Below are positions 1 through 17,219 of a stretch of DNA of 24,000 nucleotides, piece after piece. Source of the stretch: Burkholderia glumae LMG 2196 = ATCC 33617 (lineage in GTDB: Bacteria > Pseudomonadota > Gammaproteobacteria > Burkholderiales > Burkholderiaceae); assembly GCF_000960995.1 (NCBI RefSeq), contig NZ_CP009433.1, positions 3 to 24,002 on the forward strand. Reading direction: 5' to 3'. How positions within the stretch are numbered: position 1 is the stretch's first letter; the number at the start of each line of letters is the position of its first letter. The notes beneath the pieces are model-generated. The model did no database searches and was not told the DNA's origin. It saw nothing but the letters and a program-made list of their open reading frames with translations. The position numbers and the translations under genes are program-made.

Positions 1-2883
1 GCTCAGGTAGAAGCTGCCCGGTACGAGGATCTCGCCGGACAGCCGGTGGTCGCGCAAGAACGCGTGGCTGCGCGCGCTACAACGCTGCTCGAATACGATC
101 GAACCGTCCGCGACGTCGACGCGTGCGCCAAGTCCGGCCACCTCGACGCCAGGCGCAACGCCGGCAGCCTCGGCACCGTCCGGTTCGACCCAGTAGCGCT
201 TGCGCTGGAACGGATAGGTCGGCAGCGCAACTTTGACTGGCCGCTCGACGCGGTGCAGCGACTCCCAGTCCAATACCGCGCCGCGCACATACAGTGCCGC
301 CGCACTCTCCAGCATCTGCTCGACTTCCCCGCGCCCCGGGCGCAGGCTCGCCAACGACACCACCTCGCTGTCCGGCCCCAGCGTCTGCCGCGCCAGCGCC
401 GTCAGCGTCGGACGCGCGCCGATTTCCAGCACCACATCCACCCCATGCCCCACCAGCGCCTCGATCCCGAGACCAAACCGCACCGGCGCACGTGTATGCG
501 CCAACCAGTACCCCGCCCCCGCCACTTCCTCGCCCGACACCGCGCCGCTCACGTTCGACACCAGCGGCATCTGCGGTGCCGACAGCTGCGTCGCCTTCAA
601 CTGCGCCTCGTACGCCTCCAGCATCGGCTCCACCAGCGGCGAGTGAAACGCATGCGAGCCCGGCAGCCGATCCGTGCGTACCCCCTCCCGCTCCAGCCGC
701 ACGCGCAACGCCTCGATCCGTTCCGACGGCCCCGCCACCACCTGCTGCAACGGCCCGTTGAGCGCGGCGATCACCAGCCCGTCCCCCTGCTCCGCCAGCC
801 GCTCGCTTAACGTCGCCGCGTCCAGCATCACCGACAGCATCGCCCCGCCTGCGCAACGGCTCTGCATCAGCCGGCCGCGGCTCGCCACCAGCTTCAGCCC
901 CGCCTCCAGCGTCAACACCCCCGCCGCCTGCGCCGCCATGTACTCGCCCAGGCTGTGTCCCATCACCACCTGCGGCGTCACTCCCCAACTCTCCCACGTC
1001 CGCCTCAACGCATAACCCAGCGCGAACAGCGCCGGCTGCGTGTAGTCCGTGCGGTCCAGCAGCGCAGTCGACGCCCCGTACAGCACCTCCAGCAGCCCGA
1101 CCTCCAACTCGCCTTCCAGCACGCTCGCGCATTCGTCCAGCGCCGCCTTGAATACCGGCTCGCACTGGTACAGCTCCCGGCCCATTCCCCCATATTGCGA
1201 ACCCTGGCCCGTGAACAGCATCGCCACCCGAGGCCGGCGATTCCGGTACACCCCGCGCAACAGCGCTGGCTGTTCGCCACCCTCGCCGAACCCACGCAGC
1301 CGCGACACCAGCTCCGCTCGCTCGCGCACCACCCATGCCGCGCGCTGCTCGAACGCGCTGCGCCCCGTGTTCGCCGTGTAGCAGATCGACGCCAGATCCG
1401 CCGAGCCTTGCTCCACAAACGAGGCATAACGCTTCGACAGCGCGCGCAGGGCTTCCTCGCTGCGCGCCGACAGCGTCAGCACCTGCGCGCCGCGGCCCGT
1501 GCTCACCGCCTCGCGCACCACCTCCGGTACCGATTCCAGGATCGCGTGCGCATTCGTACCGCTGAAGCCGAACGAACTCACGCCGATCATCTTTAGCGGT
1601 GCGTCGTTTTCCATCAAACGCGTCGGCACCGCCAGCCCGCTGCCGGCCCAGTCGAAACGGGGGTTCGGATCCGCGAAGTTGAGGCTCGCGGGTACTCGCT
1701 GGTGCTGGAGCATCAGCACCGATTTGATCAGCCCCGCGATGCCCGCGGCGGCCTCCAGATGGCCGATGTTGGTTTTCACCGAACCGACAAGCAGCGGCTG
1801 CTGCGCGGTGCGTCCGCGCCCGTAGACCTTCGACAGCGCGGCCAGCTCAATCGGGTCGCCGAGCGGGGTGCCCGTGCCATGCGCCTCGACATAGCCAACC
1901 GCACCGGCTTCGACGCCGGCGTCCTTCAGCGCGGCTTCCAGCAGGCGCTCCTGCGCCCGGCCGTTCGGCACGGTCAGCCCGCTGCTCGCGCCGTCATGAT
2001 TGATCGCCGTGCCGCGAATCACCGCCAGGATCCGGTCACCATTCGCGCGCGCGTCGTCGAGCCGCTTCAGCACGATCACGCCGGCCCCTTCGCCCCGCAG
2101 ATAGCCGTCGGCTGCCGCATCGAACGTGTGGCAGCGGCCGGTCCGCGACAGCGCCCGGATCTTGCAGCAGAACACCGTGGACAGCGGCGACAGCATCAGC
2201 GCGACGCCGCCCGCGAGCGCCATGCCGCATTCACCCATGCGCAGGCTCTGGCACGCCTGGTGGACCGCGACCAGGCTCGCCGAGCACGCCGTGTCGACAA
2301 GCATCGTCGGCCCCTCGACGCCAAGCACGTAGGCGAGCCGGCCCGCCGCGATGCTCGGTGTGTTGCCGAGGCCCGCGTACGCATCGACACGCCGCGCGTC
2401 ACGCCCAAACGCGAGCCGCTCGTAATCATGCCAGCTCACGCCCATGAAAACGCCGCACGAGGCCCCCCGAACCGCGCTCGGCGCGATTCCGGCGTGCTCG
2501 AGCGCTTCCCAGCCCACCTCCAGCAACAGCCGTTGCTGAGGATCGAGCGACACGGCCTCGCGCTCCGAGATGCCGAAGAACGCCGGGTCAAAGCCGTCCA
2601 CCGCATCCAGGAAACCGCCGCGCCGCACGTACATCTTGCCCGGTGCCTCCGGATCGGGATCGAAGAAATGGTCAATGTCCCAGCGGTCCGCGGGACTCTC
2701 CGTCGTCACGTCCCGACCGTTCGATAGGACCTCCCAGAAGGCGTCCGGGCCCGCGACGTCGTGCGGAAAACGGCAGCCGATGCCGACGATCGCGATTGGC
2801 TGGCGCTGGGCCCGCTCGAGTGCCTCAACCCGCTCGCGCGCGAGCTTGAGCGCCTGCGCGATCCGTTGCTGTGTGGTAGTCAC
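1..2883 (-). CDS. Modular type I polyketide synthase, N-terminal part (docking helix, KS, AT, start of DH). The C-terminus lies beyond the left window edge.
   Basis: Absent from the ORF track because it has no stop codon in the window. Hand translation of the minus strand starts at GTG 2883-2881. This is the first start codon after the in-frame stop at 2901-2899, and GGGGA lies ~9 nt upstream. The frame stays open to position 1. Sequence read: VTTTQQRIAQALKLARERVEALERAQRQPIAIVGIGCRFP...VDTACSASLVAVHQA (KS Cys codon 2286-2284)...VEAHGTGTPLGDPIE...GSVKTNIGHLEAAAG...GVSSFGFSGTNAHAILE. The AT follows (GHSLGEY, Ser codon 954-952; HAFHS), then PTYPFQRKRYWVE, then the DH motif HRLSGEILVPG (His codon 48-46). 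Confidence 0.9.
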   Translation of the reverse strand, partial: MTTTQQRIAQALKLARERVEALERAQRQPIAIVGIGCRFPHDVAGPDAFWEVLSNGRDVTTESPADRWDIDHFFDPDPEAPGKMYVRRGGFLDAVDGFDPAFFGISEREAVSLDPQQRLLLEVGWEALEHAGIAPSAVRGASCGVFMGVSWHDYERLAFGRDARRVDAYAGLGNTPSIAAGRLAYVLGVEGPTMLVDTACSASLVAVHQACQSLRMGECGMALAGGVALMLSPLSTVFCCKIRALSRTGRCHTFDAAADGYLRGEGAGVIVLKRLDDARANGDRILAVIRGTAINHDGASSGLTVPNGRAQERLLEAALKDAGVEAGAVGYVEAHGTGTPLGDPIELAALSKVYGRGRTAQQPLLVGSVKTNIGHLEAAAGIAGLIKSVLMLQHQRVPASLNFADPNPRFDWAGSGLAVPTRLMENDAPLKMIGVSSFGFSGTNAHAILESVPEVVREAVSTGRGAQVLTLSARSEEALRALSKRYASFVEQGSADLASICYTANTGRSAFEQRAAWVVRERAELVSRLRGFGEGGEQPALLRGVYRNRRPRVAMLFTGQGSQYGGMGRELYQCEPVFKAALDECASVLEGELEVGLLEVLYGASTALLDRTDYTQPALFALGYALRRTWESWGVTPQVVMGHSLGEYMAAQAAGVLTLEAGLKLVASRGRLMQSRCAGGAMLSVMLDAATLSERLAEQGDGLVIAALNGPLQQVVAGPSERIEALRVRLEREGVRTDRLPGSHAFHSPLVEPMLEAYEAQLKATQLSAPQMPLVSNVSGAVSGEEVAGAGYWLAHTRAPVRFGLGIEALVGHGVDVVLEIGARPTLTALARQTLGPDSEVVSLASLRPGRGEVEQMLESAAALYVRGAVLDWESLHRVERPVKVALPTYPFQRKRYWVEPDGAEAAGVAPGVEVAGLGARVDVADGSIVFEQRCSARSHAFLRDHRLSGEILVPGSFYLS
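185..1562. repeat. Copy 1 of a 1378-bp near-identical direct repeat (KS C-terminus, KS-AT linker, AT, post-AT linker)
   Basis: Base-by-base comparison with 5790-7167 (offset 5605) gave only 4 mismatches, at 232, 237, 238 and 1505. Identity collapses immediately outside both ends. Confidence 0.95.
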
Positions 2884-2914
2884 CTTGATGTCCCCATATC
2901 AGTGCGCGTGCCGC

Positions 2915-15953: not shown

Positions 15954-16031
15954 GTCTTCTCCATGAATCGATCGCATCACGCGACGTCGCGGCAGCTGAC
16001 AGGAAGCAGCTGTGACGGCCCGCCGCCCGGA

Positions 16032-17219
16032 CTACTGCAGATGATTCCGCCCGACCAACGCGTCGGAGTGCGGAACGCGCTGTCGAATTACCGTTGCGAG
16101 ACGCTCGATCTCGTCATCGGGATGACCCGCCGTGATCAGGATGCGCAGGCGGGCCGTACCACGCGGCACCGTGGGCGGACGGATCGCGGTGACGAAAAAA
16201 CCTTCATCGGCAAGCATGCGCGAGGCGTTCAGTGCAGCCATCTCATCGCCGACGATGATCGGCACGATAGGAGTCAGTGGCTCGGGGATGCCCAATAACG
16301 CGGCGAACGCCCTCGCTTTGGCGAGTGGTCGCTCGACAAGCACCGGATCGGTGGTGATGATTTCAAGCGACGCGATGGTCGCCGCGACTGTCGCCGGGGG
16401 CTGGCCCGTTGTCAGTCCATAGGTGCGCGCGCGGTTGCGGATCAAGTCGATTACTGGAATCGAGGCGGCAAGATAGCCGCCGTAGCTGCCCACCGCCTTG
16501 CCTAGCGTTCCCATCTTCAAGGGCACTCGGGCGTCGCGCCCTGTCGCGAAGGTCGCGCCGCGCCCGTGCCCGACAACACCGATGCCGTGCGCGTCGTCTG
16601 ACATCACCCAGGCATCGAAACGATCGGCAAGGGCGACCAGTTCCTCGAGCGGCGCGATGTCGCCGTCCTGTGAAAATACCCCGTCGGTCAACAGAATCGC
16701 CTTGCCATGAGTGTGCCGATGCTCTTGCAGCAGCGCCTCGACGTGGACGAGATCGTTATGGCGGAACGCGACTATCCGGCCGCGCGACAACTGCGCGCCC
16801 GCCCACAGGCAACCGTGCGCGAGTTCGTCAATGAGGATCAAATCCTCCTTGCCGACGAGGGCCGGCACGATGCCAGAGTTCGCGAGGTAACCCGAACCGA
16901 ACACGCAAGCGGTCTCGGTGCCCATAAGGCCGGCAAGCCGTGCTTCCAGATCGGCGAACAGCGGATGATTGCCGGTCACGAGCCGTGACGCGCCCGCACC
17001 GGCTCCATAACGCCGTATCGCGGCGACCGCCGCCTCCTTCACCGCTGGATGCTGGGTGAGATTGAGATAGTCGTTGCATGAGAACGAAAGCAGCCGACGT
17101 CCGTCCCTACGAATCCAGATCCCTTCGCTTCGATCCGTTTCCGTGAGAACGCGACGCAAATTCGATGCGCTCAGTTCCGCGAGTTTTTGCTCTGCATATG
17201 AATCAAGCGAATGAGTCAC
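16032..17219 (-). CDS. bioF: 8-amino-7-oxononanoate synthase (BioF)-like PLP-dependent alpha-oxoamine synthase
   Basis: 395-aa ORF with GTG start 17219-17217 and GAGAGGGG ~5 nt upstream. AOS-family motifs: FSCNDYLNL, SRLVTGN, GSGYLAN, SDDAHGIG, and the PLP lysine in GTLGKAVGSYGG. It is the first gene of the operon. Confidence 0.85.
   Translation of the reverse strand: MTHSLDSYAEQKLAELSASNLRRVLTETDRSEGIWIRRDGRRLLSFSCNDYLNLTQHPAVKEAAVAAIRRYGAGAGASRLVTGNHPLFADLEARLAGLMGTETACVFGSGYLANSGIVPALVGKEDLILIDELAHGCLWAGAQLSRGRIVAFRHNDLVHVEALLQEHRHTHGKAILLTDGVFSQDGDIAPLEELVALADRFDAWVMSDDAHGIGVVGHGRGATFATGRDARVPLKMGTLGKAVGSYGGYLAASIPVIDLIRNRARTYGLTTGQPPATVAATIASLEIITTDPVLVERPLAKARAFAALLGIPEPLTPIVPIIVGDEMAALNASRMLADEGFFVTAIRPPTVPRGTARLRILITAGHPDDEIERLATVIRQRVPHSDALVGRNHLQ

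Follow-up and report, generated by a model that had tools for sequence, protein, structure and literature searches.

The 24,000-nt stretch analyzed here (Burkholderia glumae LMG 2196 = ATCC 33617, contig NZ_CP009433.1, positions 3 to 24,002; "the window" below means this whole stretch) holds the 5′ two-thirds of a plasmid-borne operon in which a hybrid nonribosomal peptide synthetase-polyketide synthase (NRPS-PKS) is accompanied by enzymes of biotin-pathway type. Domain content of the window proteins was assigned with Pfam and NCBIfam, together with open reading frame (ORF) listing, translation, and start-codon mapping. A sequence-only reading of this DNA had proposed seven co-directional genes, and all seven were found on the minus strand, in the same order and at the same places. 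The features of the window are as follows.

16032 to 17219, minus strand: BioF-like alpha-oxoamine synthase (AOS), the first gene of the operon (RefSeq BGLU_RS29850; Pfam Aminotran_1_2).
14787 to 15953, minus strand, alternative longest start at 15980: D-amino-acid oxidase (DAAO)-like flavin adenine dinucleotide (FAD) oxidase (Pfam DAO).
13801 to 14784, minus strand: quinone oxidoreductase (QOR), a quinone-oxidoreductase/zeta-crystallin-type medium-chain dehydrogenase/reductase (MDR) (Pfam ADH_N, ADH_zinc_N).
12750 to 13760, minus strand: biotin synthase BioB, canonical (TIGR00433).
10950 to 12713, minus strand: NodU/CmcH/TobZ-type carbamoyltransferase (Pfam Carbam_trans_N, Carbam_trans_C).
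2915 to 10930, minus strand: hybrid NRPS-PKS, 2671 aa, with a truncated condensation (C)-domain remnant followed by adenylation (A), thiolation (T), ketosynthase (KS), acyltransferase (AT; malonyl), dehydratase (DH), ketoreductase (KR), and acyl carrier protein (ACP) domains (Pfam).
1 to 2883, minus strand: 5′ part of the second PKS gene (KS, AT [malonyl], start of DH), which runs off the window (translation, Pfam).
17220 to 17990, no strand: AT-rich noncoding region upstream of the BioF-like gene, ending at an IS3-family insertion sequence (IS) element (GC content, promoter-like site).
18013 to 24000, plus strand: IS block on the 5′ side of the cluster, with IS3-type OrfA/OrfB, IS110, and IS21 istA/istB (ORFs, translations, RefSeq annotation).
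177 to 1585, minus strand: direct repeat copy 1, covering the KS-AT linker, AT, and post-AT linker of module 2.
5782 to 7190, minus strand: direct repeat copy 2, the corresponding region of module 1.

The recomputed intergenic gaps equal the earlier values (78 nt, or 51 nt with the longest DAAO-like start, then 2, 40, 36, 19, and 31 nt), and the RefSeq starts agree. A single co-directional transcription unit, as had been proposed, is supported: terminator-like sites inside the operon do not exceed chance (4 found versus 8.0 expected), and the sole minus-strand promoter-like site (17739 to 17711; match 9/12) lies within the AT-rich region 5′ of the first gene. This upstream region spans ~770 nt, has ~45% GC (0.45 in positions 17001 to 18000) compared to 65 to 70% in the genes, and contains long A/T runs; a search upstream of the BioF-like gene for inverted repeats or operator-like sites found none. 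In the adjoining IS block, the IS3-type OrfA/OrfB carry a frameshift.

Genes beyond window position 1 were read from plasmid bglu_2p of B. glumae BGR1 (NC_012718.1), to which the window is 100% identical and whose plus strand corresponds to the window minus strand. The operon continues ~16 kb past position 1, with PKS2, PKS3, an avidin gene, a major facilitator superfamily (MFS) transporter gene, a VOC protein gene, and a methylmalonyl-CoA mutase gene, and is followed by IS66; IS66 copies are present at this far end of the cluster in the plasmid record. The whole operon comprises ~30 kb and 12 genes with IS elements on both sides, and the ~35-kb island looks transposon-delimited. No BioA, BioD, or BioC/H is encoded in the window or in the wider 50 kb of plasmid examined, in agreement with the proposal that this is not a housekeeping bio operon. 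Its description as an orphan NRPS-PKS cluster also stands; a search of open-access papers found no account of this gene set. We consider it probable that a metabolite directed at the biotin pathway is both made and managed by this locus and that it is used alongside a secreted avidin.

The avidin gene is the strongest single argument for the locus being about biotin. It encodes a 153-aa avidin/streptavidin-family protein (Pfam, 106.8 bits) with a Sec signal peptide ending AWA|G, and it keeps the equivalents of streptavidin N23, S27, Y43, S45, W79, T90, W92, W108, W120, and D128. These are the ureido-ring, sulfur, and hydrophobic-box contacts, so that the protein appears from its residues to be a full member of the avidin family. 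The gene is conserved at the matching position in Burkholderia sp. FERM BP-3421. Other bacterial avidins (streptavidin, burkavidin, bradavidin, and rhizavidin; PMC8033661) share the fold, the signal peptide, and the biotin contacts, whereas the B. glumae avidin gene belongs to an operon and follows a PKS gene in it; polyketide or other biosynthetic neighbors are not mentioned in the 2021 survey of bacterial avidins (PMC8033661). Conjugative plasmids of Xanthomonas pathogens of bean and citrus (X. citri pA, L176 8920 to 9366, and 47 others) also carry avidin genes as lone cargo; the proteins are ~43% identical, and no biosynthetic genes lie nearby. Plasmid-borne avidins may be a wider theme among plant pathogens.

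A second argument comes from BioB, which had been labeled "BioB-like". The family assignment holds, and the "-like" can be dropped: the protein scores 378.9 bits against TIGR00433 (cutoff, 225), a wide margin for a canonical BioB, and matches Escherichia coli BioB (1R30) with an E value of 2e-117. It keeps the CxxxCxxC motif, the [2Fe-2S] ligands C97, C128, C188, and R260, and the dethiobiotin contacts N151, N153, N222, and T292/T293, the last two being the carboxylate-anchoring residues. No alignment column divides cluster-linked BioB proteins from lone or housekeeping betaproteobacterial ones, and no cluster-specific substitutions were seen.

The BioF-like protein differs in this respect, and here the earlier label was apt. 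Its score against TIGR00858 (bioF) is 418.5 bits, below the cutoff of 426.45; six cassette- or cluster-linked relatives score 400 to 422, and none of the cassette relatives passes, compared to 436 to 456 for four non-cassette relatives. It is 64 to 73% identical to 8-amino-7-oxononanoate synthases (AONS) of alphaproteobacterial type, among them one (P0059, 65%) whose gene is flanked by bioD and a gene for a BioA-like aminotransferase. Cassette-type and other BioF proteins have different fixed residues in ten alignment columns. All 8 cassette-type sequences share the changes A134G, M180Q, Y264L, and S265T (E. coli BioF numbering), which none of 110 others has; A134G adjoins the His that stacks on pyridoxal phosphate (PLP), and M180Q falls within the GVFSMDGD motif, which therefore departs from the housekeeping active-site pattern. 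Equivalents of the PLP lysine and His133 are kept. Because of the subthreshold scores and the fixed column changes, the BioF-like proteins form a diverged subfamily, and this one is no spare 7-keto-8-aminopelargonic acid (KAPA) synthase.

The full gene set is present on at least 36 B. glumae plasmids in PLSDB. It also occurs in B. contaminans (BioF-like protein 93% identical) and on plasmid p2 of Burkholderia sp. FERM BP-3421, where avidin and MFS genes again stand at the end; in B. ubonensis and B. stagnalis it was placed by protein names only. Trinickia sp. NRRL B-1857 has a chromosomal cluster, otherwise 89 to 94% identical, in which bioB is reduced to a 53-residue remnant (L002 9790 to 9942) between the QOR and carbamoyltransferase genes, so BioB is dispensable for keeping the rest of the cluster. 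Since gene order is conserved across Burkholderia species and Trinickia, the arrangement is not a chance juxtaposition. Two divergent metagenome clusters share a PKS3-like/MFS/BioB trio. One, on a groundwater contig, encodes a PKS3-like protein (58% identical), an MFS protein (70%), BioB (76%), a second MFS protein, a BioF-like protein (72%), a DAAO-like protein (72.5%), a benzoate-CoA-ligase-family enzyme, a QOR (62%), and a phosphopantetheinyl transferase (PPTase); the other encodes a PKS, a PKS3-like protein, an MFS protein, and BioB (77%), with no BioF cassette within 10 kb. The metagenome variant L086 was read only as far as its PKS, where the locus ends. The locus is thus modular, consisting of PKS3-like/MFS/BioB, a BioF-like/DAAO-like/QOR/MFS cassette, the carbamoyltransferase with an A-T loader, and avidin. 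These observations bear on an alternative in which housekeeping bioF and bioB genes merely adjoin an unrelated PKS cluster. NCBI does annotate bioB as biotin synthase; against this stand the synteny in B. glumae, B. contaminans, FERM BP-3421, and Trinickia and its rearranged forms in metagenomes, the IS-flanked plasmid island that lacks BioA and BioD and has avidin in the same operon, the failure of the BioF-like protein to reach the BioF threshold, and the tolerance of BioB loss in Trinickia. Because synteny is conserved, this reading is effectively refuted, and we regard it as extremely improbable.

Several features of the FERM BP-3421 cluster differ from that of B. glumae. A 787-aa AprA-like methyltransferase-ACP protein (L088 4975 to 7338), absent from B. 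glumae, is encoded divergently upstream of the BioF-like gene, where B. glumae has IS elements; the second PKS comes in two pieces, the ACP being called as an overlapping ORF of its own (L088 28455 to 29075); and neither a mutase nor an epimerase gene follows the MFS gene. Upstream of this cluster are three H-NS genes and, 2.5 kb downstream, a LuxI/LuxR pair, neighbors that may hint at silencing or quorum control.

The assembly line reads A-T / KS-AT(malonyl)-DH-KR-ACP / KS-AT(malonyl)-DH-ER-KR-ACP / KS-AT(methylmalonyl)-DH-ER-KR-ACP-TE, where ER is enoylreductase and TE is thioesterase. The complete PKS2 has 2131 aa (KS-AT-DH-ER-KR-ACP) and PKS3 has 2381 aa (KS-AT-DH-ER-KR-ACP-TE). Collinear modules and a terminal TE identify a modular type I PKS in an NRPS-PKS hybrid, with the caveat of an Asp-to-Glu change in the first DH (DH1). 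At the N terminus of the NRPS-PKS, the weak Condensation match covers profile positions 205 to 272 only. The A-domain specificity code, read by ungapped alignment to GrsA, is D-I-A-A-V-G-V-V-W-K. Asp235 and Lys517 are kept, which implies an alpha-amino acid substrate; the pocket is wholly hydrophobic, and the code shares the D-I-..-G-.-V-W-K pattern of glycine-activating domains with smaller residues at 239, 278, 299, and 322. The substrate is most likely, as judged from the code, a small amino acid without a hydroxyl and slightly larger than glycine, with L-alanine as the prime candidate. A 2,3-diaminopropionate (Dap) or 2,3-diaminobutyrate starter was rejected, being excluded by the fully hydrophobic pocket and giving the wrong chain length for BioB.

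AT1 and AT2 carry the motif GHSLGE...HAFH (malonyl) and AT3 carries GQSMGE...YASH (methylmalonyl), and these are identical in type across all orthologs, including a metagenome PKS only 58% identical. The methylmalonyl-CoA mutase (1060 bits) and the VOC protein, which resembles methylmalonyl-CoA epimerase, fit the need for a methylmalonyl-CoA extender. Each of the three KRs is of B type and has the catalytic Tyr (the NRPS-PKS KR carries LRD and YAAAN), the NADPH motifs of ER2 and ER3 are kept, and the TE is intact, with its Ser and His kept. The catalytic His is kept in all three DHs and the catalytic Asp in DH2 and DH3 (DH3 DxxxH, by alignment to solved DH domains). Module 1 has a KR and a DH and no ER, whereas modules 2 and 3 are fully reducing. 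The predicted TE product would be R-CH(NH2)-CH=CH-(CH2)3-CH(CH3)-COOH and, if R is CH3 from an alanine starter, 8-amino-2-methylnon-6-enoic acid. In chain arithmetic, alanine (C9, C8, and C7) plus three C2 units gives a C9 pelargonate skeleton with a C6=C7 double bond and a C2 methyl. With alanine, the predicted skeleton is the nine-carbon one of KAPA, 7,8-diaminopelargonic acid (DAPA), and dethiobiotin, with an added alpha-methyl group and with functionality at C7/C8. The methylmalonyl-specific last AT and the TE predict an alpha-methyl acid, and the avidin gene is adjacent.

Supply of alpha-methylpimelate by the PKS to the BioF-like enzyme, following the logic of Streptomyces, was considered and rejected: module 1 turns the carbonyl of the starter into an alkene, which leaves no way for C7 to become a carboxyl or thioester. 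Variants of the alpha-methylpimelate scheme with oxidative decarboxylation are one carbon too long. Modules 1 and 2 share a 1409-nt direct repeat (99% identical, 13 mismatches), a sign that these two malonyl modules recently underwent gene conversion or duplication; the adjoining KS and DH regions are much more diverged.

The carbamoyltransferase has both domains of the NodU/CmcH/TobZ type (Carbam_trans_N, 179.5 bits; Carbam_trans_C, 232.7 bits), and its best solved relatives are NovN (9e-110), GdmN, and TobZ. Among the matches listed, close relatives are rare: those in Burkholderia and Trinickia are 87 to 93% identical (Trinickia, 93%), and a single Streptomyces locus (48%) is the sole one outside Burkholderiaceae. 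A metagenome scan with the enzyme returned only generic relatives of ≤42 to 43% identity and no further cluster variants. The Streptomyces relative lies between a free-standing A-domain gene and a peptidyl carrier protein (PCP) gene, and the code of that A domain, D-I-L-A-L-G-C-I-W-K, is the glycine code at 8/10 positions. The carbamoyltransferase thus appears, from these gene neighborhoods, to be associated with an A-T loader. N-carbamoylation is favored because the alpha-amine would be the sole nucleophile on an Ala/Gly-type carrier substrate and because this relative sits between A and PCP genes.

A specific model can be built on these features. The A domain would load L-alanine, and the carbamoyltransferase would N-carbamoylate the alanine while tethered on the carrier protein. 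Module 1 would then generate an enoyl thioester, and the ureido NH2 would add to C7 (aza-Michael addition), closing an imidazolidinone ring without BioA or BioD. Modules 2 and 3 (fully reducing, the last using methylmalonyl) and the TE would release alpha-methyl-dethiobiotin (C11H20N2O3), into which BioB would insert sulfur to give alpha-methylbiotin. The MFS transporter would export the product, and the avidin would sequester environmental biotin, bind the product, or both. The model accounts for the absence of an ER from module 1 only, which otherwise seems arbitrary, and it delivers a product that a canonical BioB could take as its substrate. The prerequisites for aza-Michael closure are present: a small-amino-acid A domain, an adjacent carbamoyltransferase, and an ER-less module 1 with KR and DH. 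Cylindrospermopsin biosynthesis (CyrA/CyrB) offers a precedent, as an N-derivatized glycine-type starter is placed on an A-T-KS hybrid and the starter nitrogen adds to DH-generated enoyl thioesters. There, an amidinotransferase yields a guanidine, compared to a carbamoyltransferase and a urea here, and the chain length and product differ. Amidination also precedes adenylation in cylindrospermopsin, whereas the kept Asp235 in B. glumae suggests carbamoylation after loading. An alanine-primed, carbamoyltransferase-built ring formed on an NRPS-PKS without BioF, BioA, or BioD, yielding alpha-methyl-dethiobiotin and alpha-methylbiotin and convergent with Streptomyces, is a tentative proposal that is rather unlikely to be correct as a whole.

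Several observations weigh against this chemistry and the antimetabolite reading built on it. Every chemical step is inferred, and the product is predicted from genes. The catalytic Asp of DH1 is replaced by Glu (HAGLVESGFQ, NRPS-PKS residues 1932 to 1941, window ~4276 to 4305), and this Glu is conserved in the B. glumae, FERM BP-3421, and Trinickia orthologs. It could mean altered chemistry at the very step of the proposed ring closure; module 1 might stop at the alcohol, leaving a 7-hydroxyl open to O-carbamoylation and giving a carbamate or oxazolidinone analog. The solved proteins closest to the carbamoyltransferase are without exception O-carbamoyltransferases, and transfer to a 7-hydroxyl, yielding a carbamate or oxazolidinone, is an alternative to be taken seriously. 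The A-domain code is no recognized alanine code, and with glycine the ring would be without the methyl required by BioB. No dedicated cyclase was identified in the cluster. The model needs no BioF-like, DAAO-like, or QOR enzyme, though that cassette is strongly conserved. The Trinickia cluster has lost BioB (the 53-residue remnant described above), and BioB-type enzymes of Streptomyces convert alpha-methyl-dethiobiotin poorly (PMC13336041).

Some of these points would suit a polyketide that is not biotin-like, for example, an O-carbamoylated amino-alcohol or amino-alkenoic acid, with the avidin starving competitors and BioB and the cassette supplying or protecting the producer. In favor of this view, BioB cannot be told from a housekeeping betaproteobacterial BioB, the nearest solved relatives of the carbamoyltransferase decorate hydroxyls, and Trinickia does without BioB. 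The lone avidins on Xanthomonas plasmids indicate that avidin can act alone, and extra bio genes and target duplication (mdbA-C) have been proposed as self-protection in Streptomyces (PMC13336041). We nevertheless judge this view unlikely. The fit to the dethiobiotin series in chain length, placement of the double bond, and alpha-methyl group is too good to dismiss, BioB stays linked to a PKS3-like gene and an MFS gene in otherwise differing clusters, and the BioF-like protein belongs to a diverged subfamily and is not a spare KAPA synthase.

The sequence-only reading had envisaged a biotin-like or antimetabolite polyketide made by a different route, beginning with the AOS off-loading or extending the chain as an aminoketone. 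Worked out in full, this route would have the BioF-like AOS condense the finished chain from the last ACP with alanine to an alpha-aminoketone; the amine would be N-carbamoylated, the ureide would cyclize onto the ketone and lose water to form an imidazolone, and reduction of the ring C=C by the QOR would be followed by thiolane closure by BioB. The biotin-antimetabolite reading is much strengthened by the avidin, the canonical BioB, and, if the starter is alanine, the chain length and terminal methylmalonyl unit; the AOS off-loading route is not favored. Every enzyme class that this route needs is encoded, its QOR belongs to the C=C-reducing MDR group, and a metagenome variant has a CoA ligase within the cassette beside a TE-ending PKS, which fits conversion of an acid to an acyl-CoA for the AOS. 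It is chemically reasonable, with a saxitoxin-like precedent: in saxitoxin biosynthesis, AONS condensation gives an aminoketone, and N-amidination and cyclization onto the ketone give a five-membered cyclic guanidine. The saxitoxin cluster also has a NodU-type enzyme, SxtI, which O-carbamoylates. However, the AONS domain of SxtA is fused to a PKS-like protein without a TE, whereas in B. glumae the AOS is a separate protein, and the Burkholderia assembly line terminates in an intact TE, in a cluster without a CoA ligase. Off-loading by the AOS would consume the only carboxylate and place the methyl at C6, leaving no biotin-like acid tail and fitting poorly to BioB T292/T293 and the avidin pocket. 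Moreover, the BioF-like cassette also occurs with a CoA ligase and without any PKS, and these PKS-less cassettes contain no carbamoyltransferase. The carbamoyltransferase itself pairs with NRPS loading genes, and its closest relative outside Burkholderiaceae, among the matches listed, lies between A and PCP genes and not beside an AOS. We regard the AOS route as quite improbable.

The DAAO-like protein of the cassette has human and pig D-amino-acid oxidase as its best solved relatives (E value, 7e-27); it keeps the equivalent of the carboxylate-binding Arg283 and has Tyr224 replaced by Asp and Tyr228 by Phe. Its homologs of 57 to 73% identity are widespread. The QOR scores 235 bits against the PIG3 family (TIGR02824), below the cutoff, and its solved relatives (zeta-crystallin, 2-haloacrylate reductase, and PKS enoylreductase domains) are mostly C=C reducers. 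A PKS-less metagenome contig (L092 7310 to 14002) encodes an MFS protein, a BioF-like protein, a DAAO-like protein, a benzoate-CoA-ligase-family enzyme, and a QOR among housekeeping genes, and another (L093 5819 to 11131) carries the same set minus the QOR inside a different biosynthetic gene cluster (BGC)-like stretch. The cassette genes on these two contigs are 57 to 70% identical to their B. glumae counterparts, and neither contig has a carbamoyltransferase. The BioF-like/DAAO-like/QOR/MFS cassette is a separable module, normally with its own CoA ligase, and its role could be self-protection, bypass of inhibited biotin steps, or further tailoring of the product.

It is possible that the cassette acts last, with the carboxylate of alpha-methyl-(dethio)biotin activated and joined to an amino acid by the BioF-like enzyme and the resulting aminoketone processed by the DAAO-like protein and QOR to a biotin analog modified at the acid end, or that the latter two form a BioA-independent KAPA-to-DAPA bypass (reductive amination and oxidative unmasking). 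The cassette is autonomous, usually includes a benzoate-CoA-ligase-family enzyme, and recurs without a PKS; the BioF-like enzyme has the active-site-adjacent changes M180Q and Y264L; and the DAAO-like protein keeps the carboxylate-binding Arg and loses both lid tyrosines. Precedents exist in FAD glycine-oxidase homologs that unmask amines in cremimycin biosynthesis and in BioU, which replaces BioA by reduction/oxidation chemistry. However, Burkholderia clusters have no CoA ligase, MDR-family enzymes are not known imine reductases, and DAAO-like homologs 68 to 72% identical occur without BioF in a different small cluster, which suggests a generic substrate. On balance, these schemes seem improbable, if slightly less so than AOS off-loading. 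Taken jointly with a polyketide route to the biotin ring, the idea that the cassette is a widespread uncharacterized module acting on biotin-pathway-type aminoketones is conceivable but doubtful.

The small cluster just mentioned is found in Herbaspirillum seropedicae and Paraburkholderia sp. D15 (L089 2823 to 9137; L091 1 to 11137). Both loci encode, besides the DAAO-like protein, a MatE protein, a PCP, a transglutaminase-core protein, an ApbA-type reductase, a flavin reductase, and a distant NodU-type carbamoyltransferase (37 to 38% identical to the B. glumae enzyme), and L091 has an A-type adenylating enzyme; the pairing of DAAO-like protein and carbamoyltransferase therefore recurs without BioF. 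On a Xanthobacteraceae contig (L094 9851 to 10825), an MDR/QOR-type gene lies on the opposite strand beside genuine bioA-like/bioF/bioD genes, which may be coincidence or a wider QOR-bio gene association.

Avidin-tied biotin-antimetabolite genes are already known as a kind. Alpha-methyl-KAPA, alpha-methyl-dethiobiotin, and alpha-methylbiotin are known antimetabolites with genes beside streptavidin genes in Streptomyces (PMC13336041), where the "streptavidin BGC nexus" comprises mkp/mdb (alpha-methyl-KAPA and alpha-methyl-dethiobiotin), acd (acidomycin), sta (stravidins), and nda (ANDA) (PMC13336041, PMC13111796, bioRxiv 10.1101/2025.10.09.681295). The B. glumae cluster resembles this nexus in the physical linkage of an avidin-family gene to biotin-antimetabolite-type genes, in a BioF-like enzyme (MkpD in Streptomyces) and extra bio-pathway genes (mdbA-C, including BioB), and in an alpha-methyl next to the carboxylate, the distinguishing feature of the Streptomyces compounds, which in B. 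glumae is only predicted. With nda it shares an amino-acid-primed NRPS-PKS with a thioesterase. In mkp/mdb clusters, the chain is built by FabH/KS/ACP, cleaved by a BioI-like P450 to 6-methylpimeloyl-ACP, and passed to a BioF-like enzyme and BioA/BioD copies (PMC13336041). None of a P450, FabH, free-standing KS/ACP, BioA, or BioD is present in the B. glumae cluster, whose chain building is thus not of mkp/mdb type. The cluster lies in another phylum and is plasmid-borne and a single operon in contrast to a cluster of clusters; its modular type I NRPS-PKS takes methylmalonyl as an extender, where Streptomyces has a fatty acid synthase (FAS)-like KS/ACP system and a BioI-like P450; and it has a NodU-type carbamoyltransferase, a DAAO-like protein, and a QOR, none of which is reported for Streptomyces. 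The assembly logic thus differs, and the route to the biotin ring is possibly new. The 2025-26 Streptomyces papers make no mention of Burkholderia. In FERM BP-3421, a 2023 multi-omics study counted 24/29 BGCs as orphan, and the five known BGCs (ornibactin, pyrrolnitrin, caryoynencin, spliceostatins, and romidepsin) and the new selethramide are not related to this cluster (PMC10589681).

Compared to the canonical BioF-BioA-BioD-BioB pathway, the operon has a full BioB and a BioF-like protein 65% identical to a genuine BioF, and the carbon skeleton of its predicted product is shared. Unlike that pathway, it has no BioA, BioD, or BioC/H, and its BioF-like protein is subthreshold with subfamily substitutions; the skeleton could come from a PKS, and the ureido carbon could come from carbamoyl transfer and not from CO2 and ATP. 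That the operon makes, modifies, exports, and sequesters a biotin-type antimetabolite, as a proteobacterial counterpart of the Streptomyces streptavidin/antimetabolite loci, is a plausible reading to which we give a little less than an even chance.

Biotin synthesis is a validated and under-used antibiotic target. To our knowledge, natural biotin antimetabolites and their link with streptavidin were known only from Streptomyces until 2025-26. If the proposed chemistry is true, the locus would provide a polyketide route to the biotin scaffold, a new use of a carbamoyltransferase, and an engineerable assembly line for biotin analogs, while the diverged BioF-like subfamily and its cassette are a testable lead in their own right. 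Among the organisms that carry it are B. glumae, which is a rice pathogen, B. cepacia complex members, and FERM BP-3421, an industrial strain amenable to genetics. If the biotin-directed reading is true, "biotin warfare", in which a sequestering protein is combined with a pathway mimic, would have evolved independently in Gram-negative plant-associated bacteria.

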